The position numbers and the translations under genes are program-made. Source: an uncultured delta proteobacterium (GTDB taxonomy: Bacteria > Bdellovibrionota_C > UBA2361 > CAIXSY01). Taken from it: DNA of 50,666 bases. Positions within the stretch are counted from its first letter, which is position 1; each line of letters opens with the position of its first letter. Below, piece after piece: positions 32,275-48,224 of the stretch. Under the pieces are notes generated by a model, which saw only the letters and a list, made by a program, of their open reading frames with translations, was not told the origin of the DNA and ran no database searches. The stretch spans positions 1 through 50,666 of the forward strand of contig CAIXSY010000232.1 of assembly GCA_903922175.1 (NCBI GenBank). The letters run 5' to 3'.

Positions 32275-34518
32275 CTAACGTCGCTTTTTTCCCCTTCCAC
32301 GACCATGATTGTGATGCTCCTTATCTGCCTTTGGTGGCAATTTCTTTTGCAAATCTGGTGAGTTGGCAGAAAGTAGAGGGGCAGATGGCGGCGGGCTAGA
32401 AAGCAGCCGCCCTTCGTGAGCCTTGACCTCCTGTGCTTGGGCTATGTGCTCAGGATCTCGTGCTGCCGATTGGCCCCCCTCCTCAGCTGGCACCGAATCT
32501 TGGTCCTTTGCAATAGCCTTAGGCAATGTGGTTACCGTGCCGCGCGCCTTACTCGAGGAACGTGGCCCAACGGTAATCTTGAATGTCCCCGCTGGCTCAA
32601 AAGTTGGTGACGGTGCAAGCGGCGCAGCTAGGGGAGCCCCCTGCGCCTCGCCGGCGTTGACTCCGGCTGAAGGTCTTGTCTGCGGTGCAGTTTCGCGCTG
32701 CTCTTGACGCAAAATCTGCTCATCCACCCAATCAGCCAGTCCGATCTCGTCATTCTCCAGCTTCTCCGGCTGAACAATATGCTCGCGCCCCTCCCATGTA
32801 TCGGGCAGCTCAGGGTTAAACCAAAAGCTGCGCCCCTTGACGATGCGCCCATTGCCTAAATCAAACCAGGCGAGCCCCTTCTCTGCCGACATCTCATGTT
32901 TAAGCTCTTCCGCGCTAACTAGATCCTCCTCATCTTCCGAAAAATTGAGAGTTTGTGATTCGCCACCGCTGCGTCTCCCTTGCAGATCGACCGCTCCACG
33001 CATAACGTTACTACTCGTTCCTGTGGTGATGCCCGCGCCGATCGACCTCCTCGTCGTTGTCACCTTGCCGATCCACTCGGCCATATCGGTTGCCGTACGG
33101 TTATCGCCCACTCGCATCATCACCTTAAGATTGACGTTAGCCATGATCCGCTCATAAAAGGCCTCACTCAGGCCGCTCGATGCGTCAGTCAAACCACCGG
33201 CCGACTGCGCTCCGAAAAACAGGGCAAACCTGCCCTTGCGCGCCAACTCAAACAGATTGGCCCAGGTTGGCCCAAAGGTAGACGACCCTTCGTCAATGAT
33301 AACAAGGTGCGGATCCTCAAGGGTGTGCATACGAGATGAGGTGATCTCACCGATCGAGACCTCAAGATCTTCACGGAAAACCTTAACCATACGAGCCGCA
33401 CTTTCGGCCTCCTCCAAGCGTGGCAGCATGAAGTAAATTATCTTGCCTCGCAGAATCGCATCCGTAAGCACAAGATCCGTATGCTGCGTGCAGAACACCT
33501 TACCCATCTCAGAGCCGGTAATAGCATGTAGCTCGGAAGCGATGCCACGCAGGTTTTCGGTTATGCGCGCAGCGTCGATAGCACCCTTTGGTCCACGGTA
33601 GCTCGATGCCAAATGGCCTAGCTCAACCATCGCCTGGCGTGCTCCAATCTTGTGCAACATCTCACGCAGATGCGGATAGGCCAGATTGAAGGCCGAAAGT
33701 GCCACGGCGATATCGCGCATCGACCAGGCCAACCCGAGGCTCTCGAGGGCCCGCACCATGCGATAGATCGAGTCCGCCGCCAATCGATCATAGTGCTTGG
33801 TGACGCTCTGGTCAGAAGTAGGCGGCAAGCCTGCACGCAGCACTTTGCGCGCCTTAACATCAGGACGCTGCTCGGTAAGAACGAAGTTGTACGAGTGAAT
33901 GGGGTCGAAGGGATCGATCACTATCAGATCTTCAATCCGCCCGGTAACAAGCGCCATAAGTATGATATGCGCTAAGGTGCTTGAGTCGCGCTTGGCGTCG
34001 ATAAATGTGCATCCGCTGGCACGCGACCTACTCATCTGCTGAAACATGAGCGACTCAAGCCACAGTGTTTTACCGACTCCTGTTTTGGCAAAAACGCAGC
34101 CGTGGCTGCAAAGCTCATCGTCATCAATCCACAACGGCTTACCAGTATCTATCTCAAATCCGACGAGATAGCGGTCGATCATCAATTTGCCGCGTGAACG
34201 CGCATCTTCAAGCGCACGTTCGAAACAATCGCGCTGCGGCGGAACACCGAGCACTGCGCGCTCACCTCGCTTCTGGCTTTCGACCTTGCGCTCACGTTCG
34301 ATCCAGTAGTGACGCGCCAAACTATGCGCCGACCAGGCGAAAACCGATGCCGGAATCAAGCCGAGTGTAAACAGCGCAAGCGGAGCCAAGTCGCTAAGGA
34401 GTGGACTCGCCACGACACCCAAAGTGCCGACGAGCGTGAGTGCGCTAAGCATGACCGCGTGCCGCCGCTCCTCTTGATGCAGCTCATTAAAGTCGGTTCG
34501 TTTATAATCTCTTGCCAT
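32275..34518 (-). CDS. type IV coupling protein-like ATPase (TraD/VirD4/DotL superfamily)
   Basis: Two N-terminal TM helices. Walker A is FAKTGVGKT and Walker B is HLVIIDEGSS. Overall size is 747 aa. The last 170 aa or so are low-complexity Pro/Ala/Gly-rich and end in a strongly basic tail (HNHGRGRGKKRR). Confidence 0.65.
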   Translation of the reverse strand: MARDYKRTDFNELHQEERRHAVMLSALTLVGTLGVVASPLLSDLAPLALFTLGLIPASVFAWSAHSLARHYWIERERKVESQKRGERAVLGVPPQRDCFERALEDARSRGKLMIDRYLVGFEIDTGKPLWIDDDELCSHGCVFAKTGVGKTLWLESLMFQQMSRSRASGCTFIDAKRDSSTLAHIILMALVTGRIEDLIVIDPFDPIHSYNFVLTEQRPDVKARKVLRAGLPPTSDQSVTKHYDRLAADSIYRMVRALESLGLAWSMRDIAVALSAFNLAYPHLREMLHKIGARQAMVELGHLASSYRGPKGAIDAARITENLRGIASELHAITGSEMGKVFCTQHTDLVLTDAILRGKIIYFMLPRLEEAESAARMVKVFREDLEVSIGEITSSRMHTLEDPHLVIIDEGSSTFGPTWANLFELARKGRFALFFGAQSAGGLTDASSGLSEAFYERIMANVNLKVMMRVGDNRTATDMAEWIGKVTTTRRSIGAGITTGTSSNVMRGAVDLQGRRSGGESQTLNFSEDEEDLVSAEELKHEMSAEKGLAWFDLGNGRIVKGRSFWFNPELPDTWEGREHIVQPEKLENDEIGLADWVDEQILRQEQRETAPQTRPSAGVNAGEAQGAPLAAPLAPSPTFEPAGTFKITVGPRSSSKARGTVTTLPKAIAKDQDSVPAEEGGQSAARDPEHIAQAQEVKAHEGRLLSSPPPSAPLLSANSPDLQKKLPPKADKEHHNHGRGRGKKRR

Positions 34519-34551
34519 AAAACTAACGAGGCGAGGCCTCAGACTCTGTTA

Positions 34552-34925
34552 GTAACTGCTCATTAACCCCCGGGCCAAAGAACCTTGATCATAGTGCTTA
34601 GTTGATTAATTGAAGGAAATTATTTTCACCACAGAGTACGCTGAGGTACGCCGAGGAAAAATCTTTTGTCCTATCGACCGCGGGCTAAAAAACAGCATTT
34701 CCATCTGTGTGCCTCAGCGTACTCTGTGGTGAAGAATTCTCCCTGTTAAATAATCAATTAAGCACTAGTCCTGGTCGTGGTCTTAAGTCCCTGTCGTGTC
34801 CTGGGCCGAAACCATTGACCAATTGACCATGACCAGGATTTAGGGCCAGGACAGTTCGACAAACTCACTGCAGGCCAGAACCAAGACTATGGTAAAGAGT
34901 CGCCCCCGGGTTAATGAGCAATTAC
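34552..34925. mobile_element. composite nested palindromic MITE-like element, copy 2
   Basis: Terminal arms GTAACTGCTCATTAACCC.. (34552-34574) and ..GGGTTAATGAGCAATTAC (34903-34925) pair with one mismatch. The internal 176-bp hairpin 34592-34767 includes a perfect 21-bp inverted repeat (34626-34646 / 34712-34732). A second GGTCGTGG/CCATGACC-type hairpin region follows at about 34769-34860. Confidence 0.7.
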
Positions 34926-34953
34926 GCGACAAGTCCCCACAACATTACTAACC

Positions 34954-36999
34954 TCACGTCAAAGCCCCCTCCTCATCCACAATTTCCTCCTCAAATCCCT
35001 CCAATTTCTTGCCAAAATCCTGGGCATCTTCAGCCATTGTCACGCGATCGACCTGGGCAAAACGAACTTGCCAATTTTTTCCCCATTTCTGCGCCAGGCG
35101 CGTACCGCGAAAGGGCACCATTGCTGGCTTGCCAAGCATCCCCACCTCATTACTTCCAAAGAGTAGCGGTTCGACCTTAAAAACAGTGAAGATAACCGAA
35201 CACGGCGGAACGGAATAGTCCCCGACTCGGCGTGCGATCCAACCAAACGAACTCAAGACAACCCGCAGCGCAGACCATTCCCGCACCTCACTCTCCATCA
35301 AACCGTGACGCTCAGCGATCTGCTTAATCTCCAGCAAACTAAACGGCGTAACGCATCTCTCGTGCGTCATCAGCGGATGCGCACCCCCATCTTCATGGAC
35401 CTGCTCAAAGGAGAGCGTCTGCAGCTTCTGCTTTTGACTAACGTGGTTCACGAGCTCCTCAAGTCGCTGCAGGATCGGACGGCTAACGATCTTACGCATC
35501 AAGATGAGCACCGTGCGCAGCGGCATAAAAAACAGATTCCCATGAGTGGCATACATGCCCCCAATAACCTCGGGGGCGCCAGTCATAATGGCGTCGAGCA
35601 ACATCTGATTCCAGGCCTGGTGGGCATCACAGACGATGCCATACAACTCGACGTCGTCACTTACGGCGGAGAGTTCATGCGGTCCGGCCAAAAGCAACTC
35701 CGTCCACTGGCGCAGCGCTCTGGTTGAATCCGACAGATCGACGGGAAAGTGTACAGGCGCATAGACGCTACTGCGCGATGCATAGATAAGCGCACGGCGG
35801 ATACGCCCTCGCGAATCGGAATTAAACTCTTGAGCAAAAGCAGCCACCGAGTGTAACACAGCACGAGCACTCAACTGCGGAAAATTCGAACGCCGCACCC
35901 ACTTGCCGGCCTCTTTCTCAAAGGCCATAATCTTGCCTGCCTCCATCGCTAGGATGACGACAGCCAGATCCTGCACCGGAATAGCTCCTAATTCGCGACG
36001 CATAGTCGGTGTTAAGCAGCGCTGCAAGGCACGCTGCAAATAAGCACCGTACTGCTCGGTATCGAGCTTATCCACAGCGCTACCCTCGAGAGGGGCAAAT
36101 ACCGCCAGATCCTGCTCGCCGTGTATGCCGCGTCCCGCACGATACTCACGCTGCAACTCTAAAGCATTCATCAGCGCGACCGCTGCGACCTCACCGAGAG
36201 GCGCTCCTTTAAAACTTCGATCGAGGAGAGCTGTCTCATCACGTGCCGCCACATACCCCGGGACCTCTGCGTAATGAACTATCATCGAAGCCAAAGCGAG
36301 AGAGGTTTCGGTCTCGGCCCCAAAATGGTGTAGCACCTTACCCAAGTCGGTCCCCTTGGTTGTCGACAGTTCGGCACTCTGCAGGGTTGCTAAGCCGGTG
36401 ATTAATTTTTCAGGCAGCCCCTGCTCATTCACTCGATCGAGGCCCACCTTAATCCCCGAGTAAAAGAGCCTGCCGTTGCTCGTCTCGCCAAGTATGTCGT
36501 TGGCAGTATGCACGCGCAGGGAGCGTCGTGCCCAAACAACCGCGCCGAGCACAACAAAGATCCATAAGCGCAACGAAGCGAGCACAAGAAAGCTGATGCG
36601 CAGCACGGCAAACTGAAGTGAGAGATAGGCACGGCGCTGGAACGAAAACTTCCCCTCGCTTTCGAGACGAGCGACGGATGCACTATTAAGAAAAGCCGTT
36701 GTTGAGATGCTATCAAAGATGCGCAGCTCCGATGAGATCCCGTGGCGCACTACCCAATCACGATACTGTTGCTGCTGCTCGACCATCCCCGAAGCCCACG
36801 GCGCACCTGAATCGAGTAGCGTCTGGCGTGCAACCTGCAGCCGAGTGCCATGCGGACCGGCGGCCTCCCCGCCAGCGAAAATAGCAAACAAGATTAAGAG
36901 GACGAGCGCACCAAAAAAGGAGATCTTAAGTAGGCTCCTGCTCCCGCGCCGCATCCTCGCAAACTCTTGTTGGTGCTGTTGCGCGATGGAGGAAGTCAA
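34954..36999 (-). CDS. large membrane-anchored protein of unknown function, encoded upstream of the coupling protein
   Basis: The 681-aa ORF has N-terminal TM helices (residues about 24-44 and 125-160) and a roughly 500-aa cytoplasmic-looking body. No catalytic motif recognised. Its position relative to the T4CP resembles the dotM-dotL, trbA-trbC or PFL_4697-traD pairs. Confidence 0.6.
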   Translation of the reverse strand: MTSSIAQQHQQEFARMRRGSRSLLKISFFGALVLLILFAIFAGGEAAGPHGTRLQVARQTLLDSGAPWASGMVEQQQQYRDWVVRHGISSELRIFDSISTTAFLNSASVARLESEGKFSFQRRAYLSLQFAVLRISFLVLASLRLWIFVVLGAVVWARRSLRVHTANDILGETSNGRLFYSGIKVGLDRVNEQGLPEKLITGLATLQSAELSTTKGTDLGKVLHHFGAETETSLALASMIVHYAEVPGYVAARDETALLDRSFKGAPLGEVAAVALMNALELQREYRAGRGIHGEQDLAVFAPLEGSAVDKLDTEQYGAYLQRALQRCLTPTMRRELGAIPVQDLAVVILAMEAGKIMAFEKEAGKWVRRSNFPQLSARAVLHSVAAFAQEFNSDSRGRIRRALIYASRSSVYAPVHFPVDLSDSTRALRQWTELLLAGPHELSAVSDDVELYGIVCDAHQAWNQMLLDAIMTGAPEVIGGMYATHGNLFFMPLRTVLILMRKIVSRPILQRLEELVNHVSQKQKLQTLSFEQVHEDGGAHPLMTHERCVTPFSLLEIKQIAERHGLMESEVREWSALRVVLSSFGWIARRVGDYSVPPCSVIFTVFKVEPLLFGSNEVGMLGKPAMVPFRGTRLAQKWGKNWQVRFAQVDRVTMAEDAQDFGKKLEGFEEEIVDEEGALT

Positions 37000-37221
37000 G
37001 ATAGAACCTCGTTTGCGAGTCGTTGTCTACTATAGTCCATAGTTTTATAGGATAGCTAACTGATATTCTTATATATTATTTAGCCACCCAGGCCACAGCA
37101 TAGCATGGAAAATAAATAAAAGCATGGTTCTATAAGATAACTAAGACTACTGCCGACTATCCCTTCGCGGAGTGATTTAATGTATAGTGCGCGCTTTAGG
37201 CGTGGCTTTGTTGTGATGGCT

Positions 37222-37354: not shown

Positions 37355-37408
37355 CAATTAACCATCCCAACCAGCTGTATATATTTAATAAATGTTTTAG
37401 GCATCATT

Positions 37409-37441
37409 TTGACGAGATCACTGCATAACGGTAGTTATGCA
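37409..37441 (+). promoter_or_regulatory. candidate promoter/operator of the plus-strand T4SS-like operon
   Basis: TTGACG (37409-37414) is followed by the perfect palindrome TGCATAAC-GGTA-GTTATGCA (37422-37441), about 50 nt upstream of the first gene. The -10 element is not convincing. Confidence 0.25.
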
Positions 37442-37492: not shown

Positions 37493-37891
37493 ATGCGATT
37501 GGCTAAGTATCTAGTATTAATTATTAATTTGATTGTTGTAACAACCGTTAATGCCGATGCCCCGGGTGCTGCCAACACCACCCCCCCGGTATCCGCCACG
37601 ATCGAGCCAAGCGCTGGCATCGGACTTGAGCGTGTCTCTGGCGAGAAGCTGGCCACGGCCGTAGGTCACTATGCACGCGCTCGCTCGCTTCTTATAGCCG
37701 CAGTTAATGAGTTTGACAGAGGATATAAGGTAGCGAATCCAGACGCTATTTTGGATTCCAAGGCATGGCGCGGTACGCTTGTAGATCGGGCCGAAGAGTT
37801 GCAAAAGGTGATCGACCCACAGCCCCGCGCTACTCGCGGAGGCATTAAATTTAATGCTGATCCTCGTCTTTTAAATGAAGCAGGGAAGTAG
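37493..37891 (+). CDS. secreted periplasmic protein, unknown function (occupies the pilin slot of tra operons)
   Basis: The 132-aa product has a signal peptide (LVLIINLIVVTTVNADA) and then a hydrophilic helical sequence. It lacks the two hydrophobic helices of F-type or P-type pilins. Confidence 0.55.
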   Translation: MRLAKYLVLIINLIVVTTVNADAPGAANTTPPVSATIEPSAGIGLERVSGEKLATAVGHYARARSLLIAAVNEFDRGYKVANPDAILDSKAWRGTLVDRAEELQKVIDPQPRATRGGIKFNADPRLLNEAGK

Positions 37892-37935: not shown

Positions 37936-38424
37936 ATGGATAATGGAGAGGTTATACCCGGACTGAACGAAGACTGGATGCTCGCAGGCGCTAAGCTGTC
38001 TGAGTGGGTCTGCGGCTTCATGGCTTTTATTATCTGTTCGGAGGTTATCTTCACCGACAAGATGGCTCGATCGATGCCCCTTCTTCTTCTTGTTGGAGCG
38101 TTTACGGTGTTTAGCATGGCTGCACTACGCCGCACCTTCCCCGATGAAGAGCGCGGTATTCGCAACGCTGCCATGACCGCTGTCGGTGTGGAGCCCCCTG
38201 GCATCCCTACCCCGGCAGCCCTACAGCCGATCTGGAGCGGAGCTCCTGTACGACAGTTGAAAGCAACCAGTAAGTTTCGGCGGTATGGACTAGATCTGGT
38301 GTTTGATGGCACTAAGCGCGAGATGCAGGATGAAGATCTCGGAGGTTTCCAACCCGGACTGAAAAGTATAGGCACCAGGCCAGTCAAAGCGGAAGCCAAG
38401 GTTGTTAAAGAGGTTAAAGAGTAG
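37936..38424 (+). CDS. small 2-TM inner-membrane protein, TraL-like position
   Basis: The N-terminal pattern IPGLNEDWMLAGAKLSEW followed by two TM helices recalls F TraL (FPETL...RWFGLPLDEL). The C-terminal 80 aa or so are extra. Confidence 0.4.
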   Translation: MDNGEVIPGLNEDWMLAGAKLSEWVCGFMAFIICSEVIFTDKMARSMPLLLLVGAFTVFSMAALRRTFPDEERGIRNAAMTAVGVEPPGIPTPAALQPIWSGAPVRQLKATSKFRRYGLDLVFDGTKREMQDEDLGGFQPGLKSIGTRPVKAEAKVVKEVKE

Positions 38425-38436: not shown

Positions 38437-39132
38437 ATGTTCAATTCGACTCAAGCAACCCAAAGGATTAAGGAGGCCGTTAAAGATGCCTCGGTAATCG
38501 AGTCTCGTAAAGAGTCCGACACCATCCGCTTGTGGGAGAATTACAAGGATCAGGCGCTTCTGTGGCGCTCTCTGGCACTATTGCAGATTCCAACAACACT
38601 GGTTGCGGTCGTCTTCTCGATGGTTCTATGGCATACGCGTCACATTAGCCTAAACGTTCCGCGCCAGCCTCTCCCCGGCGTCTATAGTGCGAACGAGATT
38701 CCGAATGAGAAATTTATCGAGTCAGCTACGGACATTGTCAACCTGATCGCCACCTATACCTCGGGAAACGCCCGCACGCAGTTTCGTAAGGCCAAAGAGA
38801 TGCTGCTTGAGCCACTTCTCAGTAGGTTCGAAATTGAGATGCTCGGCTCCGAGATTAAGCAGATTGAGAGCACCAGCCGTTCGCAGGTGTTTTTCGCCGA
38901 TCCTAGTAAGATCTTTATCGAGCGCGCGCCCTCAGGCAGAGAGGTCAGCGTACAGATCTACGGCGAGCGTCTTAAGCTCGTCGGCGGCAAAGAGATCCCG
39001 CCATTTCCAACAAGCTTCACGATAACGATGACCACGGTACCGCGAAATGTCCTCAATCCCTACGGCATTGTCGCCACCAACATCGCCATCGAGAATATAA
39101 ATCCGAAAGATATGAAGAAAGTGGGGAGATAG
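38437..39132 (+). CDS. TraE-like (VirB8-fold class) bitopic protein
   Basis: Single N-terminal TM helix (LALLQIPTTLVAVVFSMVLW) followed by a roughly 160-aa periplasmic domain. Size, topology and position after the TraL-like gene match TraE/DotI-type components. Confidence 0.5.
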   Translation: MFNSTQATQRIKEAVKDASVIESRKESDTIRLWENYKDQALLWRSLALLQIPTTLVAVVFSMVLWHTRHISLNVPRQPLPGVYSANEIPNEKFIESATDIVNLIATYTSGNARTQFRKAKEMLLEPLLSRFEIEMLGSEIKQIESTSRSQVFFADPSKIFIERAPSGREVSVQIYGERLKLVGGKEIPPFPTSFTITMTTVPRNVLNPYGIVATNIAIENINPKDMKKVGR

Positions 39133-39134
39133 AA

Positions 39135-39962
39135 ATGGGCATAAGTTTTGAGGTTAGGAGATATCGCATGAGAAGAATTTATAACACCATTGCCTTGAGC
39201 ACCCTCCTGAGCGGGGCAGTATTGTTCTCCCCGGCAGTGAGTTCGGCCCTCGATGTCGACTACGATAAGGGCGAGGTGGTTGTGCGCGTCACCCCGGGCG
39301 AGCCGACCCAGATTCAGTTCCCCGGAGCGATCGATGGCGGCTTCATGAAGAAGGCTTCAACGCTCTCATTGCAGCCAAAGGACAACGACCTGGTTGTCTT
39401 CGCCAAAGAGAATATCAATGAAGCCGGGGAAGCAATAATCGTGCGTCTTAAAGATGGCCGGTCTTACGCCGTGCGCATTTCGCGAGCCTCCGCCGACAAA
39501 CCACGCAACGACGTGGTCAACATCAACGACGCCCGTGGATCGATCCTCGGCGGTGAAGAGGAGGAAGCACCATACAAAGAGCGAAAATTTGATTACGCGC
39601 CACCCTCCCAAGTGAGCGGCCTGATGCGCGAGATGGCCCTAGCGGCTGAGTTTGGAAAGGCCAGCATCACCGGTTACCGTATGTCTGATGCCTATCGCGG
39701 CCAGCAGGTACTTAATGACGGCACCCTTATCGCCACTATTGATCGCATCTACATCGGACCTAATTTGTGGGGCTATGTACTTGATACTGCCAACGCCATA
39801 GACCAGACTCAGAAGATAAATCCGGCGGCATTTCGAGTTGACGGTACGCGCGCGATATCGGCCAGGAATTGGGAACTCGCCCCGGTGCCGATGAACGTTG
39901 AGCAGCAGCTCGCCGCAAAACATAAGACCAAGGTTTACATTGTGACTAAGGCACGTAAGTAA
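39135..39962 (+). CDS. TraK-like (VirB9 class) periplasmic/outer-membrane core protein
   Basis: Signal peptide. The C-terminal pattern W.YVL...N....INPAAFRVDGTRAIS ... KVYIVT parallels F TraK (FWQPGTRAV ... DVYVI) as I remember it. Confidence 0.55.
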   Translation: MGISFEVRRYRMRRIYNTIALSTLLSGAVLFSPAVSSALDVDYDKGEVVVRVTPGEPTQIQFPGAIDGGFMKKASTLSLQPKDNDLVVFAKENINEAGEAIIVRLKDGRSYAVRISRASADKPRNDVVNINDARGSILGGEEEEAPYKERKFDYAPPSQVSGLMREMALAAEFGKASITGYRMSDAYRGQQVLNDGTLIATIDRIYIGPNLWGYVLDTANAIDQTQKINPAAFRVDGTRAISARNWELAPVPMNVEQQLAAKHKTKVYIVTKARK

Positions 39963-40007: not shown

Positions 40008-41210
40008 ATGAAACAGAGATTCCAAGATTTGATGCTGCTCCTTAAGAAGGACAGGAAATACCAGTTTATAATTCTTGTTGCCGTAATTACGATGGCATGG
40101 GCTTTGCTGCATAAGCCGAGCAGCCCAATGCCTCCAAAGCCGTTAAGGGTCAAACCCGCGCCCAAGACAGGCGCACCGAGCGCCGAAGAGGGTTTTAACG
40201 ACTTAATCACCGCCTTTAAAACTGACGTGGTCACCCTCAAGACTCAGGTTAGCGAGATGAAAAACGCACGCGAAGGTGACAAAAAAGATGCAGAAGAAGC
40301 GAGTGCACGAATGGCGGAGATCCTGAAAACAGTTCTTACTCGTATGGAGGAGAAAAACAGCGCCGACCGCGCCATGGCTGTAGCGCAATCCCAAAATTCC
40401 GGCTCTCCAGTATCGGCGGAGTCGGTGGAAGATCCCGGCGATCCTAACTCTGGGATGGCGACATACAACAATGGGGCCGACGGCGGCACGATTGAAGCAT
40501 TTAAGGCTAAGCCAGACTTTGCTCCTGCCCCTCCTCCGGCTCCAGCTCAACAAAGGACCGCTATCGTTGGGACCGGTGACCACGTGCGCGTCAAACTCAT
40601 AGGCGCCGTCCATGCATCAACCGACGGCACCCCCTATCCCGTACTCTTTAAAATAGTATCTGATGTGCGCGGTCCAAACGATTCCAACCTGCCGGTTGGA
40701 GAAGCGATCCTCGTCGCCGCTGCGCAGGGCTCGCTTACCGATTCACGGGCGCTGTTTCGGCTTACCTCACTCAACATGGCCTATCCTGATGGCCGACGTA
40801 ATGTGCTTGATATCGATGGCTGGGTCGTTGGCGAAGATGGCATCGCCGGTATGGAGGGAAAGTTAATCGATCCTATCGGCAAGGCCATCGCCGCAGCCGG
40901 TATGGGAGGAATGCTGGCGGGCATCGGTGAAGGCCTTTCAGCCAAGAACATGAGCGTCCAGTCCAACGCTTACGGCGGCCAAACGATAAGCCTAACCGGC
41001 AGTGAGCAGGAGTATGCCGCGGGCCAGGGCCTGTCTTCGGCAGCTAAGGCCTGGAGCCGTATCGTCGAGCAGCGCGTGCAAAAGCTGCAGCCGATGGTCG
41101 AGGTACTCTCGGGACGTGAGGGCACGGCGATCTTCTCACGTTCATTTAAGATTCCTGGTCTGATCGAAGCATACCAGCTGAATGAAGATAGTTACTCATC
41201 AGTAGATTAA
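40008..41210 (+). CDS. TraB-like (VirB10 class) envelope-spanning protein
   Basis: N-terminal TM helix, coiled-coil segment, Pro-rich stretch (PAPPPAPAQQ) and a Gly-rich beta C-terminal domain (GWVVGEDGIAGMEGKLIDP). This is the architecture of TraB/VirB10/TrbI. Confidence 0.6.
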   Translation: MKQRFQDLMLLLKKDRKYQFIILVAVITMAWALLHKPSSPMPPKPLRVKPAPKTGAPSAEEGFNDLITAFKTDVVTLKTQVSEMKNAREGDKKDAEEASARMAEILKTVLTRMEEKNSADRAMAVAQSQNSGSPVSAESVEDPGDPNSGMATYNNGADGGTIEAFKAKPDFAPAPPPAPAQQRTAIVGTGDHVRVKLIGAVHASTDGTPYPVLFKIVSDVRGPNDSNLPVGEAILVAAAQGSLTDSRALFRLTSLNMAYPDGRRNVLDIDGWVVGEDGIAGMEGKLIDPIGKAIAAAGMGGMLAGIGEGLSAKNMSVQSNAYGGQTISLTGSEQEYAAGQGLSSAAKAWSRIVEQRVQKLQPMVEVLSGREGTAIFSRSFKIPGLIEAYQLNEDSYSSVD

Positions 41211-41759: not shown

Positions 41760-42347
41760 ATGGATCCGCAAACGAAAATGAACCTTCACTTCAGCGCCAT
41801 GATGGCGCTTTGCTCTCTGCTGGGCGCCTGTGGCCCGACAACGCAGGAGTGGACCCCAGCAAAGAAACCGAAGGCGTATCTCGTCTCATACCGTCAGACG
41901 GCGCCTCAGCCAACGTACAATCGTCTCACCTGGGTTAATTCGCCGGACGTGCTTCCGTCGAAAGAGTTACCGCAGCGTCCCGGTGAACGAATTATGCCGA
42001 TTTTTCACCTTGAGTTAAAAAACACCCCGGTAGATGAAGCTGCGCTGGTTATCGCCGGAACGTCGCGATATACAAGTACCTGTAGCAGCTCCGACTGTAA
42101 GCATAAGGTGAGCTTGAATACGCTAGGCACGACCGATGAGCTGGCCGAAGAGCTGGCCAAGAAGAGCGGCATGCATGTCATCGTCGACCATGATAATGGC
42201 GAAATTCGTGTCAGCGGCAGAAGTCTTGTAGTCACGAAGACAACAAAACCGGGTTTTTATAAGAAAAAGGCACCATCAGCCGTAAAGAAGGAGTCGACGG
42301 ACAATATCGAAACGTCCGCCGAAGACCTTCCGGTTGAGGGATCATAG
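41760..42347 (+). CDS. lipoprotein, unknown function (possible N0/TcpQ-like domain)
   Basis: Canonical lipobox LLGAC. The central segment (FHLELKNTPVDEAALVIAG ... ELAKKSGMHVIVD) is loosely reminiscent of secretin-N0/DotD/PilL-type domains. Weak call. Confidence 0.45.
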   Translation: MDPQTKMNLHFSAMMALCSLLGACGPTTQEWTPAKKPKAYLVSYRQTAPQPTYNRLTWVNSPDVLPSKELPQRPGERIMPIFHLELKNTPVDEAALVIAGTSRYTSTCSSSDCKHKVSLNTLGTTDELAEELAKKSGMHVIVDHDNGEIRVSGRSLVVTKTTKPGFYKKKAPSAVKKESTDNIETSAEDLPVEGS

Positions 42348-42354: not shown

Positions 42355-45087
42355 ATGAGCATTAACCGACTGACACGCGAACGGCTGTACCAGGATGAGG
42401 CGTTATTCAACAGCCTTCTTCCGTATGCCAAGTACGACGAGAACTACCAGCTCTTCGTACATTCAGACGCTTCGCTCTGGTCGGTTTGGGAGCTCACCCC
42501 ACTCGTGATCACGAAAGCCTCCGATACCGAGGCCTTCGAGGTGTGCGAAAACGTTCAGGAGCTGATCGATGCCATGGATCAGACGGTGAGCGTGCAGATC
42601 TCTTGGATTACCACCTTTGACACCGAAGAGCTTTTGCGTGACTCGCTTAATGGCTATCCGCGCAAGGGCCCGGCGGGATGGATGGCGCAGCGCTGGATTC
42701 GTATGATGCGCGGATCCTCGCAAGCGGGTAGCTACCACCGTCGACCGCGCAAGATGCGGCTCCTTATAGCCTTCCGCCAAGACCCGAAGTGGATGGGGTC
42801 GGGCATCTTCGACCAGATTGAGCGCGCCTTCCGCATGCTCATAAAGGGCGAAGTTGGCGTTACCGCCTCCATGCGCCGCACGGAATACAACCAGTTCGCC
42901 AGTAAGTTCAAAGTCGAAGTCGACGGCAAAGCCAACCGCCTAACCGACATCGGGCTGCGCGCCCGCCGCCTCAACGCTCAAGATTTAATCAATATCCTCT
43001 ATCCGCTCCTCAACCGCCGCAGCTCTCGTCCCGGCAAATTCCGTCATGGACGCACGGCACAGATACCGGTTCCGGTGTATGATCCTGAGGATCTGCTCTC
43101 CAATCAGATATCCGAGACCCTGGTTGAACATCCGAAGAACGGTTTAATCAAAAAGGATGGGCGTGTGTACCGCTCCCTCTCCCTGGTTAAGCCTCCGAAA
43201 CAGTGCCTTCCACTGATGATCACCCCGCTACAGTCGATGGCATACGAGAACATCCTCAGCGTGACCTTTTCACGTGATCCGCTCGAAGCACAGCTCAAAC
43301 GCCTGGACCGCCTCGACAGCATGTTGGGCATGCGCGAGCGCACCAACCTGGGTCGCTCAAACCAAAAGATTCAGCACCAGATCGGATCAATTCGCTCAGC
43401 GCGTCAGGACCTCTATGACGGCTCAGCTCAGATCGTCCGCGCCGGGTTACATCAGACGTTCATCTGCCAAACCGAGGACGAGGCCATTCGTGCCACCTCA
43501 GAAGCACTCTCCACCCTGGCCCAAATAAATGGAGCCCGTGGCATGGTCCATGAGATCTCGGATCTGGGAATGATGCTCAATTCCCTTCCGGCGGCCTACG
43601 ATCCCTCCACCGATGGCGCGGGATGGACCACCGTTCTCATGTCCTCCCGAGCGGTACGCCTGTTTCCACTTTGGGGCAACTGGAAAGGGAGTCAAAATTC
43701 ACTTTTCATCCTACCCAGCCTATGGAACCGTGAGCTTATTGGCTTCGATCTCTACGACTCCAGCGTGGCACCAAATATGCTGATCAGCGGGGTGTCTGGT
43801 GCCGGAAAGAGCTATCTCTTGTGCTATATACTGATCACCATGCAACGCGGCCATTTCGCAACATTGTCGGACGGAGCTGTGGTTGAGCGCGCCCCAATTA
43901 CCTTCGTCTTTGACAAGGGTATGGCCGGCCAGCCGTGCGGCTTCGAGAAGGTGGCCAAACTCTTTGGTGGACGGATCTATGAAGCCACCCCGTCGAAAGC
44001 ACCAGCGATGAACTTCCTCGCCCGCCTAGGCGAGACCCCAGCCGATATCAAGAACGAGGATTACAAAGATCTTCTCGACATGTGCGCCGACATTCTGATC
44101 GACATGGCTTCTGAGGGAGCGAACACACTCGAGCGCCTCGATCGCGCCGCCGTTATTGAGGCCCTCGTTGAAGCCCATCGCGTCTATCGTGGTGGCCAGA
44201 TGCGCAGGGAGATAATCTTAAGCGATATCATATCAGTAATGCGCGCGCCTAAGCGGGTTGAAGAGACCGAAGATTCGGCCATGCGCCGCCAGCGACTCGC
44301 CATCCTGATGGGTGACTACTACGGTGAGGGTACCTATGCGCGCTTCTTTGATCGACCCGGCTCACTGAAGCTCAAGGAACGTTTTATTGTATTCGATTTG
44401 AAGGCCCTCAGCCGAAACCCCGACCTACAACGGGTCTTTCTCAAGGTGGCCATGCTCTGGGCTGACACCGTCATGAACGATCCCAAGGAGCTCGATGCCC
44501 GCAAAATTCTAGTTTTTGACGAGGCCCATGACTTGATCGGCAAAACTGCTGCCGGAACTATTGAAACCGCCTTCCGACTCTATCGAAAGAGAAAGGGTAT
44601 CGTCATCGCCGCTTCGCAATCAGGTGAAGATTTTTACGTCGGCGGTGGTGGGCAAGCCATTGTGCAGAACAGCGCGCATAAGGTTTTCTTGCGCCAAGAT
44701 CCGAGCAAGTTCCATTATACGGCACAGGCATTTAACTTAACCGCGCAGCAATCGAATGTGATCCTAAAATTGCGTACGGTTAAGGGGGTAGAGTCACAGT
44801 TCTACCTGATTTCAGACATAGGAGAGGCGGCCCTGTGTCTCCCATTGGAACCAGCATTCTACTGGGCAAGTACAAATAACGGAGATGACAATCAGCTTTT
44901 TAGCGACATTCTGCTTAAAGCGGGCGGAGATTTCTTCAAAGCATTCGAGGCAATAGTCAAGATTGCTCCAGGCGGAGCTAATTCCGTACGCCGCCATGCC
45001 GAAGGCGAGCAGAAGGAAGAGGAAAAAGACGTCGTTACTCAACTTGTTTCAGGATTAATGGATAATGCGCTTAACAGTCCAACTTAA
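42355..45087 (+). CDS. VirB4/TraC-family T4SS ATPase
   Basis: The roughly 910-aa product has Walker A GVSGAGKSY and Walker B KILVFDEAHD. The N-terminal pattern (LY....F..LLPY..Y.....LF...D.SLWSVWEL.P) is typical of TraC/VirB4-type proteins. I prefer the ATG at 42355 over the TTG at 42334. Confidence 0.75.
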   Translation: MSINRLTRERLYQDEALFNSLLPYAKYDENYQLFVHSDASLWSVWELTPLVITKASDTEAFEVCENVQELIDAMDQTVSVQISWITTFDTEELLRDSLNGYPRKGPAGWMAQRWIRMMRGSSQAGSYHRRPRKMRLLIAFRQDPKWMGSGIFDQIERAFRMLIKGEVGVTASMRRTEYNQFASKFKVEVDGKANRLTDIGLRARRLNAQDLINILYPLLNRRSSRPGKFRHGRTAQIPVPVYDPEDLLSNQISETLVEHPKNGLIKKDGRVYRSLSLVKPPKQCLPLMITPLQSMAYENILSVTFSRDPLEAQLKRLDRLDSMLGMRERTNLGRSNQKIQHQIGSIRSARQDLYDGSAQIVRAGLHQTFICQTEDEAIRATSEALSTLAQINGARGMVHEISDLGMMLNSLPAAYDPSTDGAGWTTVLMSSRAVRLFPLWGNWKGSQNSLFILPSLWNRELIGFDLYDSSVAPNMLISGVSGAGKSYLLCYILITMQRGHFATLSDGAVVERAPITFVFDKGMAGQPCGFEKVAKLFGGRIYEATPSKAPAMNFLARLGETPADIKNEDYKDLLDMCADILIDMASEGANTLERLDRAAVIEALVEAHRVYRGGQMRREIILSDIISVMRAPKRVEETEDSAMRRQRLAILMGDYYGEGTYARFFDRPGSLKLKERFIVFDLKALSRNPDLQRVFLKVAMLWADTVMNDPKELDARKILVFDEAHDLIGKTAAGTIETAFRLYRKRKGIVIAASQSGEDFYVGGGGQAIVQNSAHKVFLRQDPSKFHYTAQAFNLTAQQSNVILKLRTVKGVESQFYLISDIGEAALCLPLEPAFYWASTNNGDDNQLFSDILLKAGGDFFKAFEAIVKIAPGGANSVRRHAEGEQKEEEKDVVTQLVSGLMDNALNSPT

Positions 45088-45101
45088 GATGAGGTATACT
45101 T

Positions 45102-45389
45102 ATGGCGTCTAAAAGCTTAGTTTTTATAACATCAGCACTGCTGCTAACTGTTCTTGCGGGATGCTCAAGCCAATCAAGCGGAGGGGCGGTGTCTTCTAAT
45201 GTGGTGGCGTGTCCCGGGTGCCCAGCCGTTCCACCGGGAACGGTGCAGTATGTGTGGGAGGAGCCGATGGTTGATGTCGTGGACGTTCCGCCTGGCCTCG
45301 ACCCAGATGGTATTTATTATCGTCCGGCTCATCAGGAAGTAACGGAGATACGCCAGGGACGCTGGAGATACTATAACAAGAACCGCTAG
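45102..45389 (+). CDS. small lipoprotein with a second TraV-like C-terminal motif
   Basis: Lipobox VLAGCSS. VDVPPGLDPDGIYYRPAHQEVTEIRQGRW resembles the motif in the 41237 product. Confidence 0.55.
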   Translation: MASKSLVFITSALLLTVLAGCSSQSSGGAVSSNVVACPGCPAVPPGTVQYVWEEPMVDVVDVPPGLDPDGIYYRPAHQEVTEIRQGRWRYYNKNR

Positions 45390-45411
45390 TGTTTTGATCG
45401 GAGGGTACCGT

Positions 45412-45786
45412 ATGAGCCTTATCAATGTGCAAAATTTTGTCGCGCCTCTTAAGAACACGACACACGTGATTACGTTGATTCTTGTCGCTGGCCTATTCGG
45501 CTCATATCGCTATGCCGGTGGCGCGATTTCATCGTCACCAAGAGTGAAGAGCTCGGCACCAGCCTCGGTGCGCCAGCCCATTGAGGATGAGCTGACAGGC
45601 GAGGATACAGCTGCGCCAGCGCAACCTCAGGCACGACCGGTCGCACAACCGGCCACCCCCGATACACGTAAAAAACTACTTGATGAGATGATGGGAAAAG
45701 ACAGCTCCAAAAAGGATCCTGCTGGCGGCAAGGAGGGGCTCAACAATACTTTGGCTGACATTGAAAAACAGCTAGGGCTTAGGTAG
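45412..45786 (+). CDS. bitopic membrane protein with Pro/Ala-rich periplasmic tail
   Basis: A GGAGGG RBS precedes the ATG at 45412 (the track start at 45394 is TTG). One TM helix (VITLILVAGLFGSY) is followed by low-complexity sequence. Confidence 0.5.
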   Translation: MSLINVQNFVAPLKNTTHVITLILVAGLFGSYRYAGGAISSSPRVKSSAPASVRQPIEDELTGEDTAAPAQPQARPVAQPATPDTRKKLLDEMMGKDSSKKDPAGGKEGLNNTLADIEKQLGLR

Positions 45787-45790
45787 GCGC

Positions 45791-46414
45791 ATGGTAAAGG
45801 AAAAAGTTATCATACGAAAAGTGTGGCGTTCGGAGCTTCCGCGGCTGGTATTGTTCGTGGTGCTTCTCGTGGTCGCTCCGGTGTTATCAAACATCTTCGG
45901 GGGAAGCGTCATCACGGGGGAACTCTTCTCCCTCCTGGGGGTTACCTATTATCTTTCCCTGCCTCTGTGGTGGCTTGTTCCAGCATTTATGCTACTTGAA
46001 GTGGCTTGGCGTATTTATAATGTGCGCTATGTTGTCGATGAACTTGGAATTGAATCGTGGGATGGAATTCTCTCTCTAAAGCAGCAGATAACACACGTGC
46101 GCCACGAAGATGTGCGCAGTATTGAAACCGATCAAAGTGTACTCGAACGCATCCTCGATGTTGGGGAGGTGCAGATCGCAACCGCTGCCACCGGTGGAGT
46201 GGAAATTACTTTCCAGGGGGTGCCGAGTCCAAAGAAGATGCAGAACTGGCTACAGGCCAAGCGTGACAAGGTACAGAAGCATGACAACCAAGGATCACGT
46301 AAGCGAGCCCTTGCGGGAAGCTCCTCGGCCGCATCGAGTGGAGTAAATGATGTGACTGCTTCGGGCGATACGGCGACCCAGCGTTCGTCGGCCTCATCCA
46401 GTGGAACGATATAA
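45791..46414 (+). CDS. membrane protein with bacterial PH (bPH_2, YdbS/YdbT-like) domain
   Basis: An N-terminal TM hairpin is followed by the bPH_2-like pattern (Y.V....I....G.LS....I....V.S.E..QS..ERIL.VG.V.I). The C-terminal tail is Ser-rich. Confidence 0.6.
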   Translation: MVKEKVIIRKVWRSELPRLVLFVVLLVVAPVLSNIFGGSVITGELFSLLGVTYYLSLPLWWLVPAFMLLEVAWRIYNVRYVVDELGIESWDGILSLKQQITHVRHEDVRSIETDQSVLERILDVGEVQIATAATGGVEITFQGVPSPKKMQNWLQAKRDKVQKHDNQGSRKRALAGSSSAASSGVNDVTASGDTATQRSSASSSGTI

Positions 46415-46417
46415 GTT

Positions 46418-47686
46418 GTGGAGATGTTTATGGAACAGAATCGGTTGTACAGGTCAAGTTCTCTAACAATCAAAATCGTGCTCATGACAGCGCTGGCGCC
46501 CGTAGTCTTCATGCTTGGTGCCTCATCACTCCTCGCTGAAAACGGCGTCGATGTAGAGGCAATCCGCAAAGACCTGCTGGCCGCCAAGGCATCAGGCAGT
46601 GCGGGAGGATCTCTCAGCACGCGATCGGGAGACGCCTTTAGTCTGAAGCCCGAAGATCTTGAGAAACGGCGTGCGGCACTGCTTGCCGAGGAGAACGCGC
46701 TCCTTAGCGAACTACAAAATGCTCCGGACACCAGCATGGAAACCGTTGAGCCCCCTGTGGCGACTGAAGAGGCTACGGCGGATCGGGCACTTGCCAACAA
46801 TAGCGAGATTACCTCGTTTGGGGCAGATCCTGCCTCTAAGGTAGCTCTGCCAGGAGACGACAGTTCCGCTGATGAACATGCCACAGAGGATGGTTCAACT
46901 GCGGAGGCTAATACCCTGCCAGAGGCTGCGCCGAAGGCAGAGCTCGCCTCAGCATCCGCCGACACCAAACATACTAAGAAGGTAAAGGTCGCGACAAAAA
47001 AGTCGGATCCTGACGCCAGTTCCGAGACTAAGGCTGATATTTCCCACGCCAGTCTTCGCGCGTCAGACCTCGAAAAGATGAAGGCAGTAGCAAGCTCAAT
47101 CGAGTCAACAATAACCAACCTGCAAAAAAGCAATACCGCGTTGGAAGCTCAGCTGAGAAGCGTGCGCATTCACTCAGCGGATCTACAAAAAGAGTTTGAG
47201 GAAACCAGAGATAGGCTAATGATTGCCGACGCCGAAGTAGAGCGATTGTCGGGGCAACTTAAGGCGCGCAATCAGCAGACCCTTACTCAAATGGCTGGAC
47301 CAATTGCCGTAGCTGACAGGACAGCGACTGCTCAGAGTGCGGCCCCCGTAGCCATGCGAGTCGTCAAGAAAACCGAAACAAGGGTGGCTGAAGACGTGCT
47401 GATAGGCACGGTAGTCGCCGATAAAGCAAATCTAAGAACTGGCGCAGGAAAAGACAATTCACCGTTTATGACCGTATCAAAGGGCACACGCTTGACTGTT
47501 GAGACTCGCGACGGCGACTGGTATCGTGTGATTGCACCGAATGGAACTCGCGCCTGGGTTTCATCGGAAGTGCTTGCCTTCGGGGAGAATAGTCAGGCCA
47601 GTCCGACCAATACCTTACGTATAAAGGGTTATGACGCAAGTCTCGAAGAGCAGGCGTTCAAGCTTATTAGCAACCGTCCTCACTAG
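46418..47686 (+). CDS. membrane-anchored or secreted coiled-coil protein with C-terminal SH3b domain
   Basis: N-terminal hydrophobic segment, an acidic low-complexity region, a coiled coil (about residues 230-290) and a C-terminal SH3_3-like module (ANLRTGAGKDNSPFMTVSKGTRLTVETRDGDWYRVIAPNGTRAWVSSEVL). The start codon is ambiguous (GTG 46418, ATG 46424 or ATG 46430). Confidence 0.65.
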   Translation: MEMFMEQNRLYRSSSLTIKIVLMTALAPVVFMLGASSLLAENGVDVEAIRKDLLAAKASGSAGGSLSTRSGDAFSLKPEDLEKRRAALLAEENALLSELQNAPDTSMETVEPPVATEEATADRALANNSEITSFGADPASKVALPGDDSSADEHATEDGSTAEANTLPEAAPKAELASASADTKHTKKVKVATKKSDPDASSETKADISHASLRASDLEKMKAVASSIESTITNLQKSNTALEAQLRSVRIHSADLQKEFEETRDRLMIADAEVERLSGQLKARNQQTLTQMAGPIAVADRTATAQSAAPVAMRVVKKTETRVAEDVLIGTVVADKANLRTGAGKDNSPFMTVSKGTRLTVETRDGDWYRVIAPNGTRAWVSSEVLAFGENSQASPTNTLRIKGYDASLEEQAFKLISNRPH

Positions 47687-48224
47687 TTTTATCGGTTGCT
47701 TGATAGGTTTTCCGTATCCGTTGGCGGCAGCACCGCAAAGCGGTATCGTGTTGCCGTACCCCACACCAAGCAAAACCTCCAATGCTTTGGGCATTGCCCG
47801 CGGTGCACTATCATCCTACGTACACCCCGTGCTTGCGCCACGAGTCTCCAGCCATTATGGGATGCGTCGCCACCCAGTTTTGAAGAAATTCTCGCGGCAG
47901 CATAATGGTCTCGATCTAGCCACCCCAGAAGGAGCGATGATTCGAGCCCTAAGCGCTGGGCTCGTCGTGTTCGCTGACCCATACGCTGGGTTTGGCAACC
48001 TCGTCGTCATTCAGCACAAGAATGGCGTCACGACTCATTACGGGCACTGCTCCGTCCTCAGGGTCAAACCCGGTCAGCGCGTTAACCCAGGCCAGATTAT
48101 CGCCACTGTGGGCAGTACCGGGCTCTCAACGGGGCCACATTTGCACCTTGAGGTTCGGGTCAACGGGGAGGCACTCGATCCGCTTGAGGTTATACCGTCA
48201 TTGGCGAGCGAGGCGGAGGGATGA
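47631..48224 (+). CDS. M23 family (LytM-type) peptidoglycan endopeptidase
   Basis: Signal peptide. HNGLDL (the HxxxD motif) and GPHLHLEV (the HxH motif) with the typical spacing (GNLVVIQHKNGVTTHYGH). Overlaps the preceding gene by 56 nt. Confidence 0.8.
   Translation: MTQVSKSRRSSLLATVLTSFIGCLIGFPYPLAAAPQSGIVLPYPTPSKTSNALGIARGALSSYVHPVLAPRVSSHYGMRRHPVLKKFSRQHNGLDLATPEGAMIRALSAGLVVFADPYAGFGNLVVIQHKNGVTTHYGHCSVLRVKPGQRVNPGQIIATVGSTGLSTGPHLHLEVRVNGEALDPLEVIPSLASEAEG

Follow-up and report, generated by a model that had tools for sequence, protein, structure and literature searches.

A probable F-type-like type IV secretion system, deeply divergent and fixed in the chromosome of an uncultured Bdellovibrionota clade

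The stretch of DNA analysed here, referred to as the window, comprises positions 1 to 50,666 of contig CAIXSY010000232.1 (assembly GCA_903922175.1) from an uncultured delta proteobacterium placed in the Bdellovibrionota. With moderate confidence, we consider the locus at positions 31468-48224 of the window to hold the main components of a type IV secretion system (T4SS) that is F-type-like and deeply divergent. This system would be a fixed, vertically inherited chromosomal trait of an uncultured Bdellovibrionota clade and would serve contact-dependent delivery. The locus is most probably not a conjugative element; its product would deliver cargo by cell contact to prey or host cells. We favour non-conjugative, contact-dependent delivery because a type IV coupling protein (T4CP) is present, because no DNA-processing gene is linked to the locus in the 88 neighbourhoods that were fetched from the clade, because the system is fixed in the chromosome, and because its modules are scattered in the same way as those of the Dot/Icm or rvh systems.

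The conserved arrangement of the locus is p160, T4CP and p681 on the reverse strand and p132, p162, TraE, TraK, TraB, TraV, lip195, TraC, p95, p130, bPH, SH3cc and M23 on the forward strand, and the order and orientation of 15-16 genes are kept among related loci. All the open reading frames (ORFs) that a first-pass annotation of the window had reported were present, and those of the locus are all intact and have lengths typical of their orthologues. Gene content was surveyed by tblastn and clustering over 82 loci, with presence counted only where the flank suffices; where a fetched related locus has to be singled out, a label such as L001, L002 or L082 is used. The genes of the tra operon up to traC are the following:

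37493..37891, forward strand: p132, a periplasmic protein with a signal peptide, encoded at the start of the tra operon; 56 of 56 loci have it
37936..38424, forward strand: p162, a small inner-membrane protein with two transmembrane (TM) helices at the TraL/VirB3 position; present in 60 of 60 loci
38437..39132, forward strand: TraE-like (VirB8-class) bitopic protein; Pfam TraE, E = 0.004
39135..39962, forward strand: TraK-like (VirB9/secretin-like) periplasmic core protein; Pfam TraK_C, E = 1.4e-4
40008..41210, forward strand: TraB/VirB10-like protein with a TrbI domain; Pfam TrbI, E = 1.9e-14, 54.4 bits, above the cut-off of 35 bits
41237..41698, forward strand: TraV-like outer-membrane lipoprotein; Pfam TraV, E = 0.0035
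41760..42347, forward strand: lip195, a conserved lipoprotein with the lipobox LLGAC; present in 73 of 76 loci
42355..45087, forward strand: TraC/VirB4 ATPase of 910 amino acids (aa) when read from its ATG, with the motifs GVSGAGKS and VFDEAHD

In the case of TraC, the Pfam family TraC_F_IV is matched with E = 2.3e-17 (63.5 bits, above the cut-off of 28.1 bits) and P-loop_TraG with E = 1.5e-9, and the F-type model TIGR02746 is the top-scoring VirB4 subtype (E = 6.5e-58, 196 bits, below its equivalog cut-off of 567 bits). Translation of traC could start at the ATG at 42355 (910 aa) or at a TTG at 42334 (917 aa), and the homologues back the ATG. In the case of TraB, the NCBIfam F-type TraB model is matched with E = 1.6e-13, and the F-plasmid TraB matches 52 loci in phmmer searches. 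For TraE, TraK and TraV, 71 orthologues were scanned singly against Pfam. The TraE family was matched in 15 of 24 orthologues (best E = 5.9e-7), TraK_C in 17 of 23 (best E = 4.8e-7, with TraK_N also matched in two) and TraV in 21 of 24, and the best E-values across the three orthologue sets were 6e-7 to 1e-4. Since these families recur across orthologues, we regard the three assignments as sound. The core gene order, traE-K-B-V-C, is identical to that of F, and the T4CP is transcribed divergently. The earlier proposal of a T4SS homologue with this arrangement was borne out, six proteins having T4SS matches in Pfam and NCBIfam. The genes from p132 through TraV, as well as p95 (described below), are present in 100% of the loci with enough flank (56 to 73 loci).

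An affinity with GI/ICEHin1056-type systems had also been proposed, and this did not hold. The locus is unlike MPF_G systems (ICEHin1056/PFGI-1) in that the TIGR03744-TIGR03752 set is not found: TIGR03744 scored 61 bits and TIGR03752 23.6 bits (cut-offs 520 and 241 bits), far under the F-type models, and the other proteins gave no match. Several further components are orphans. No Pfam or NCBIfam match was found for p132, and among 135 orthologues of seven orphan families there was no consistent Pfam family, NCBIfam adding none. In this mixed scan lip195 had only single-member matches to STN (E = 0.0076) and DotD (E = 0.03); its C-terminal domain is possibly N0/STN-like, and for a DotD-like identity there are single weak matches and a PDB profile match limited to the lipobox. 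Judged from its sequence, the locus is an F-type variant with several orphan components, the F-type being its closest known kind.

The distribution of the system provides a second line of evidence. In a TraC survey of GTDB species representatives, one genome per species, 112 genomes contained a relative. Among 5.8 billion protein clusters there are at least 300 TraC homologues of about 910 aa; for the 120 listed, identity to the TraC of the window is 67-80%, and TraC of the 80 loci that we retrieved is 59-78% identical. About two-thirds of these loci are labelled Bdellovibrionota, Bdellovibrionales or Oligoflexia, and the remaining labels are broader or older (Deltaproteobacteria, Proteobacteria, 'bacterium'), with one Dadabacteria. 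In a library of 1.84 billion representatives, the whole TraC clade forms one 50%-identity cluster (1543 bits). The next full-length relatives, in a search space of 15 billion proteins, reach at most 210 bits and at most 30% identity, and the named ones are 'TraC family' proteins from metagenome-assembled genomes (MAGs) of Planctomycetota or Nitrospirota. The best plasmid TraC is 22-25% identical to that of the window.

When the window is compared with its closest available relative, identity is 80% for TraC, 78% for the T4CP and 81% for p160, and it is 73% and 68% for the housekeeping proteins IleRS and FadB, respectively. The periplasmic parts are 57-71% identical, p681 52%, the SH3 protein 45% and the M23 peptidase 47%. 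TraC, the T4CP and p160 thus diverge more slowly than IleRS. The locus is flanked by housekeeping genes (ispG, M16 peptidases, ftsK, ileS/fadB, tgt and an accA-like gene), and its GC content is unremarkable. A second contig of the same genome runs 8.2 kb past the right end of the window, and encodes there a 659-aa unknown protein, a CoA-binding protein, a FliB_C-like protein and an acetyl-CoA carboxylase carboxyltransferase. Because the ORFs have orthologue length and the identities of TraC, the T4CP and p160 exceed those of housekeeping proteins, these comparisons indicate that the locus is inherited vertically under strong purifying selection. The first-pass annotation had placed the locus in a chromosomal accessory region; its occurrence in 112 species and its housekeeping flanks mark it as a core trait of the lineage.

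These data bear directly on the idea that the locus is an ordinary integrative and conjugative element (ICE) or a plasmid-derived island, intact or decaying, whose relaxase and other mating-pair genes lie outside the window. We regard this as extremely improbable. It is true that an F-type-like backbone accompanied by a T4CP would be expected of such an element, and that there are variable accessory genes on the left (SLT transglycosylase, Phd/PIN), together with a GC dip at 26-29 kb, and an IS200-like transposase on the right. However, the chromosomal context is conserved in 112 species, with identities that track or exceed those of housekeeping proteins, and intermediate relatives are found neither in other lineages nor on plasmids. 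Furthermore, no integrase, tRNA attachment site or direct repeats were found that could bound an element (the only tRNA is 19 kb away), and the accessory neighbours are not conserved with the locus. A decaying ICE, one of the options offered earlier, is rejected on ORF integrity and conservation: all genes are intact and of orthologue length, and TraC, the T4CP and p160 are more conserved than IleRS.

The absence of DNA-processing genes is a third line of evidence. Searches with Pfam, and with phmmer using 23 Tra proteins of the F plasmid, found no relaxase, integrase, pilin, TraG/VirB6, VirB11 or F-specific pilus-assembly homologue in the window, in agreement with the first-pass annotation. 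There are likewise no DNA-processing or pilus genes in the 8.2 kb past its right end, so the missing mating-pair genes and relaxase do not lie just beyond that edge. F TraI and TraD had no match in 1.52 Mb of sequence, comprising the window and the fetched clade loci. In none of the 88 clade neighbourhoods is a relaxase or integrase family conserved, no primase, ParA/B or oriT-like feature is conserved among them, and they hold no conserved unknown cytoplasmic enzyme.

Related loci possess genes that the window lacks. A pilin gene follows M23 in 40 of the 60 loci with enough downstream flank (e.g. L006:15789-16187). Five loci have two or three copies, which are in tandem in L037, L038, L042 and L043. 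The encoded proteins of 130-145 aa have a long leader ending at an Ala-rich cleavage-type site and two hydrophobic helices joined by GQY[RK], and Pfam TrbC/VirB2 is matched in 14 of 28 members (best E = 2.9e-5). Identity with TraA was considered for this pilin and rejected, hhalign against F TraA being negative. At the place where relatives have the pilin gene, the window encodes a 189-aa protein with five TM helices (48291-48860, forward strand) that has no homologue in the 88 related loci. In addition, L082 contains a clear TraX acetylase gene between M23 and the pilin gene (15627-16379; E = 4.8e-31), and in L048 (215-5361) and L038 (3-5235) p132 is immediately preceded by a block of four genes that are read in its direction. 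This block encodes a TraU-like protein (Pfam E = 1.4e-6, 28.4 bits, above the cut-off of 26.5 bits), a faintly TraF/thioredoxin-like protein, a 478-aa unknown protein (x478) and a 705-aa polytopic TraG_N-like protein, the VirB6 equivalent (E = 5e-6 in both loci, 26 bits, under the cut-off of 36.1 bits). In a metagenome scan, the TraG_N-like module was seen on at least one contig, of 1.4 kb. The pilin, TraX, TraU-like and TraG_N-like genes are absent from the window, from the 8.2 kb beyond it and from the three nearest relatives, L002, L003 and L001.

Taken together, the system consists of four separable modules: the T4CP module, the core module, a cell-wall/pilin module and the block from TraU to TraG_N. 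In this genome the T4CP module, the core module and most of the cell-wall/pilin module are contiguous. Since relatives carry VirB2-type pilin, TraX, TraU-like and TraG_N-like genes, the window copy is likelier to be part of a split system than a minimal machine, and the pilin and TraU-TraG_N blocks are most likely encoded elsewhere in this genome, their loss being less likely. The first-pass annotation had described a minimal, pilus-less T4SS, and this does not apply to the system as a whole. It had suggested checking whether homologous loci keep the same reduced gene set; related genomes do keep the shared genes, and 40 of 60 loci add a pilin. The retained gene set favours an exapted, non-conjugative system over an ordinary ICE, and a split system is favoured over a minimal one.

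A truly minimal T4SS core, without pilus and VirB6, in which the other modules were lost and the channel is built with p132, lip195, p95 and p681, could still apply to this genome and its nearest relatives, and we consider this unlikely. Such a core would fit the absence of pilin, TraG_N-like and TraU-like genes from the window, the adjoining 8.2 kb and the three nearest relatives; the core genes are intact and highly conserved, and the conserved orphan proteins could stand in for missing parts. Against it, only about 59 kb of this genome is visible, the modules are unlinked in relatives (in the closest one the T4CP module is 40 kb away), and a pilin gene is present in 40 of 60 clade loci. To our knowledge, moreover, every T4SS characterised so far has a VirB6-class subunit.

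The T4CP module consists of three genes:

32275..34518, reverse strand: T4CP of 747 aa; two TM helices at the N-terminus, the Walker motifs KTGVGKT (A) and VIIDEGSS (B), and a C-terminal tail that is basic and disordered
34954..36999, reverse strand: p681, a 681-aa membrane partner with two to three N-terminal TM helices, encoded upstream of the T4CP in the same operon
31468..31950, reverse strand: p160, a 160-aa cytoplasmic protein encoded downstream of the T4CP, with a Whirly/PUR-like fold and predicted to bind single-stranded nucleic acid

The T4CP matches Pfam TraG-D_C (E = 7e-8, above cut-off) and the NCBIfam models SXT_TraD (E = 3e-16) and IncI TrbC (E = 7e-14). Its top PDB sequence match is DotL (6sz9, E = 4e-10, covering the P-loop region only), and it is 57-75% identical across 39 related loci, with 50% in one truncated match. 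The module lies next to the tra operon, divergently, in 34 of 47 loci, and is unlinked in 13; in the closest relative (L088) p681, T4CP and p160 adjoin ileS and share a contig with the tra operon, from which about 40 kb separate them. p681 adjoins the T4CP in 39 of 51 loci. Its N-terminus is predicted to have a helical segment of about 80 residues between the TM helices, presumably periplasmic, and the invariant residues of its cytoplasmic domain of about 520 aa are mostly Arg, Trp, Gly and Ser. The family comprises 66 homologue clusters, none of which has a Pfam match; the few named ones are labelled Deltaproteobacteria, Oligoflexia or Bdellovibrionota. Structures were modelled with AF2 and compared with the PDB by Foldseek. 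Because the p681 model (pLDDT 81) has no significant PDB match, we interpret its cytoplasmic domain as having a novel fold, as far as the predicted structure goes. An analogue of DotM was considered for p681 and rejected: there was no significant Foldseek match, and DotM was not among the matches listed. Sequence and profile searches of p681 against PDB sequences were empty.

In the case of p160, there are 611 homologue clusters, and the 120 listed are 73-99% identical, none with a Pfam match or an informative name. The AF2 model (pLDDT 85.7, pTM 0.80) has the topology β4-α-β4-α, that is, the two β4-α repeats that define a Whirly-like fold, and its top Foldseek matches are PBF-2/p24, PURA, Pur-alpha, WHY1 and MRP1/2 (probability 0.97-1.0, TM 0.4-0.59). 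The Whirly/PUR superfamily has been described as binding single-stranded nucleic acid (PMC12065111). In 18 relatives, and also in L088, p160 has the T4CP or the tra operon as its neighbour, and in L042 and L082 it is still beside the tra operon with the T4CP not adjacent.

These properties of p160 raise the question of whether the system is a chromosomally fixed machine for transfer, release or uptake of DNA or RNA, comparable to gonococcal secretion or to conjugation, in which the T4CP and p160 handle single strands and the processing enzymes are located elsewhere or are of a new type. We judge this to be somewhat unlikely. In its favour is the p160 fold, which is that of single-strand DNA/RNA binders (PMC12065111). 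p160 is as conserved as both ATPases and stays linked in L042 and L082 without an adjacent T4CP; the conserved residues of the cytoplasmic domain of p681 are rich in Arg; and the F-like backbone goes together, in relatives, with a VirB2-type pilin, TraX and TraU, as in conjugative machines. On the other hand, the 88 neighbourhoods contain no conserved relaxase, primase, ParA/B or oriT-like feature, and the invariant residues of p681 form no His, Tyr or Asp pattern that would point to a nuclease or relaxase. The inference from the fold, moreover, is of moderate strength, and proteins other than nucleic-acid binders share this fold, SsgB being an example. A more specific form, in which the domesticated F-like T4SS would carry p160-bound single-stranded nucleic acid into prey or host cells, or out of them, with no canonical relaxase and with the T4CP in complex with its novel-fold partner, is based on the modelled fold and is in our opinion quite unlikely. 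If true, it would represent a new mode of T4SS substrate recruitment and a new mechanism of predation or parasitism.

It is also conceivable that p681, T4CP and p160 form a separate system, for instance a membrane-bound nucleic-acid-sensing or defence ATPase module, that is merely a frequent neighbour of the tra genes; we think this very improbable. In its favour, linkage between the module and the tra operon is missing in 13 of 47 loci, no relative of p681 was found among T4SS proteins, and Whirly-type and TrwB-like P-loop domains serve as sensor domains in antiphage systems (PMC12065111). Yet throughout the clade module and operon lie side by side in divergent orientation, in 34 of 47 loci, the T4CP matches bona fide coupling proteins and has their typical N-terminus with two TM helices, no other T4CP was seen in any locus, and the module is conserved to the same degree as TraC.

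Downstream of traC lie five further genes:

45102..45389, forward strand: p95, a small lipoprotein whose C-terminal motif resembles that of TraV; 72 of 72 loci have it
45394..45786, forward strand: p130, a small, poorly conserved protein with one N-terminal hydrophobic segment; the family is found at this position in 53 loci by clustering
45791..46414, forward strand: bPH membrane protein; Pfam bPH_2, E = 2e-8; syntenic in 39 of 66 loci
46418..47686, forward strand: SH3 coiled-coil protein, secreted or anchored, with a C-terminal SH3b domain of the peptidoglycan-binding type; Pfam SH3_3, E = 9e-12; syntenic in 57 of 63 loci
47631..48224, forward strand: M23 (LytM-type) peptidoglycan endopeptidase with a signal peptide; Pfam Peptidase_M23, E = 2.7e-34; syntenic in 53 of 63 loci

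The genes after traC had been taken for unrelated envelope proteins. Because p95, p130, bPH, SH3 and M23 are syntenic in most relatives, we assign all five to the system. Compared by hhalign, p95 matches the profile of the TraV orthologues (probability 87%, E = 4e-6), and p130 had no family match in the Pfam scan of the orphans. The M23 protein is more likely an accessory of the machine than an effector, because it carries a Sec signal peptide. The first 56 nt of its ORF (47631-47686) are shared with the end of the SH3 gene, and in other assemblies of the same genome M23 is called from a much later start, giving a 95-aa product.

The favoured reading, contact-dependent delivery by a non-conjugative T4SS, suggests how the parts could work together. 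TraK, TraB and TraV, probably together with p95 and lip195, would form the outer-membrane core, and TraE, p162 and the TraC ATPase the inner-membrane complex; p162 would fill the TraL/VirB3 slot, as its position and topology suggest. The T4CP would select and energise the substrate, probably with p681 and p160 acting in substrate recruitment. The Sec-exported M23 peptidase, the coiled-coil SH3b protein and the bPH protein would open the peptidoglycan locally and so replace a VirB1-type transglycosylase; no conserved VirB1-type enzyme was found in the system. The cargo would be proteins, possibly in the form of complexes with single-stranded nucleic acid, and a nucleic-acid or nucleoprotein cargo is conceivable because of the modelled Whirly fold of p160. 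Prey bacteria could be the target, given that the Bdellovibrionota are a predatory phylum, and so could eukaryotes, given the presence of a protein with ankyrin and Sel1 repeats at 9239-10702 (forward strand, 487 aa). Ankyrin and Sel1 repeats are eukaryote-like repeats that are frequent in effectors of host-associated bacteria.

Several points weigh against this reading. Firstly, no candidate effector was identified. Secondly, the TraE, TraK_C and TraV matches of the window copy score under the Pfam cut-offs, and p162 has no Pfam family and no similarity to F TraL by hhalign (probability 2%), for which reason it was rejected as a TraL homologue. Thirdly, the best Foldseek match of the p681 model to the PDB, with E = 0.04 and TM 0.1, is not significant, and its probable role as partner of the T4CP is assigned from adjacency. 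Fourthly, p160 has no Pfam or PDB sequence signal, its assignment as Whirly being by fold, with TM 0.5-0.6 and RMSD of about 7 Å, and its Foldseek matches include SsgB, which has a Whirly-like fold and is not a nucleic-acid binder. Fifthly, the absence of pilin, TraG_N, TraU and relaxase genes from this genome refers to the about 59 kb covered, and the choice between split and lost modules hinges on it; all 80 retrieved loci are from MAGs. Finally, a 374-bp element with inverted repeats inside the T4CP operon (34552-34925, between p681 and T4CP) might affect expression in this genome. Its three nested inverted repeats have arms of 24 nt (88% complementary), 20 nt (90%) and 43 nt (81%), and its core 20-mer is unique in the window. 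Since p681 and T4CP are only 14 nt apart in L088, the element resembles a MITE-like insertion or else an RNA with extensive structure within the operon. Rfam identified no RNA feature in the window, and a scan for promoters and terminators gave nothing above chance.

How does the system relate to those already known? Like F-type systems (MPF_F; plasmids F and pED208), the locus has the order (traL position)-traE-traK-traB-traV-traC, homologous TraE, TraK, TraB, TraV and TraC proteins and a T4CP, and its relatives also have TraU-like, TraG_N-like, TraX and, faintly, TraF-like genes. Unlike them, its TraC is at most 25% identical to plasmid TraC proteins and scores under the F-type equivalog cut-off; the relatives have a VirB2/TrbC-type pilin and none of the TraA type; no TraL, TraN, TraH, TraW, TrbC, TraI, TraM or TraY was detectable by phmmer in the clade loci, and TraF, TraH, TraN, TraU, TraW, TrbC and TraG were not found in the window or the 8.2 kb beyond. 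The additional conserved genes (p132, lip195, p95, p681, p160 and bPH/SH3/M23) and the chromosomal, vertically inherited, modular or split nature of the system are further differences.

The Dot/Icm systems of Legionella and Coxiella and the related IncI systems resemble the locus in their coupling proteins: the top structure match of the T4CP is DotL, the model of IncI TrbC (DotL-like) is matched, and the genes of the T4CP and of a membrane partner are neighbours, like those of DotL and DotM. Also, the system is chromosomal, multi-locus and lineage-wide, as effector translocators are. However, the locus is not of type IVB: the modelled fold of p681 does not resemble DotM, a DotB/VirB11-type ATPase was not found, DotD is matched once at E = 0.03, and the core genes match F-type models, not I-type ones.

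The gonococcal genetic island of Neisseria gonorrhoeae encodes a chromosomal F-like T4SS with a T4CP that secretes single-stranded DNA and does not serve plasmid mating. The island, which was acquired horizontally and differs from strain to strain, includes ParA/ParB-like genes and a relaxase (TraI). The locus shares with it the chromosomal F-like T4SS and T4CP and, through p160, a possible link to single-stranded nucleic acid, but differs in having no linked relaxase and in being fixed across the whole clade. The rvh T4SS of the Rickettsiales is of the P-type (VirB/VirD4), is inherited vertically, lies scattered over several chromosomal sites with canonical parts missing or duplicated, and does not conjugate. 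Our system is likewise vertically inherited and lineage-conserved, with scattered modules, whereas it is F-like and belongs to another phylum, association with a eukaryotic host being a feature of rvh. In Vampirovibrio chlorellavorus, a chromosomal T4SS with a T4CP is used for attack on other cells. The contact-dependent killing T4SSs of Xanthomonadales (X-T4SS) and Lysobacter are cited in PMC12428579. Like these three systems, the locus is a chromosomal T4SS with a T4CP, it occurs in a phylum in which predation is known, and it encodes a peptidoglycan hydrolase; unlike it, they are of the P-type and have effector/immunity pairs, none of which was identified at the locus. We found no description of this system in the searchable literature on T4SSs of Bdellovibrionota or Oligoflexia.

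T4SSs that became fixed as machines of the organism after leaving mobile elements are few (Dot/Icm, rvh, Cag and X-T4SS), and each has revealed new biology. The locus would add a case of a domesticated T4SS in a different phylum, one known for predation, and with an F-type backbone. The clade that carries it is widespread, uncultured, and found in freshwater and wastewater, and the system is probably central to its lifestyle, because it is more conserved than housekeeping enzymes. It brings with it conserved proteins without known relatives, namely a T4CP partner of seemingly novel fold, a protein with a predicted Whirly fold and extra core lipoproteins, as well as an SH3/M23 cell-wall module. 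It also offers a natural experiment on how T4SS modules separate in a genome, and a genetic handle on what these organisms attack or associate with.

The immediate surroundings of the locus contain genes of a more local kind. Between ileS and the T4SS genes lies a variable islet (26800-31450) in which the GC content dips to 0.46 (26-29 kb). Its genes code for an SLT transglycosylase (27085-27795) that could in principle be VirB1-like, a secreted protein of 175 aa, the toxin-antitoxin pair Phd/PIN, a protein with a glyoxalase fold and one with eight TM helices (30532-31431). The SLT transglycosylase, Phd/PIN, the glyoxalase-fold protein, p299 and p189b are not conserved with the T4SS in relatives and are thus local accessory genes. 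On the other side, 49108-50088 (reverse strand) encodes a 326-aa protein with a weak match to IS200-like Y1 transposases (E = 1.5e-4, just under cut-off); it may be REP-associated. A number of further assemblies of this population break close to its gene, and in L045 and L047 the M23 gene is flanked by weak tblastn matches to the protein (22-26% identity). This gene, the SLT transglycosylase gene and p132 (at 37493) were missing from the earlier annotation.

Among relatives, a protein of about 760-800 aa is encoded just downstream of the locus in 20 cases (L006:16292-18679, reverse strand, and 19 others); its N-terminal half is kinase-like, a single TM helix lies at its centre, and it belongs to no Pfam family. 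A separate 833-aa neighbour is located at the upstream end of L002 (L002:1-2139) and shows only a faint Pkinase match.

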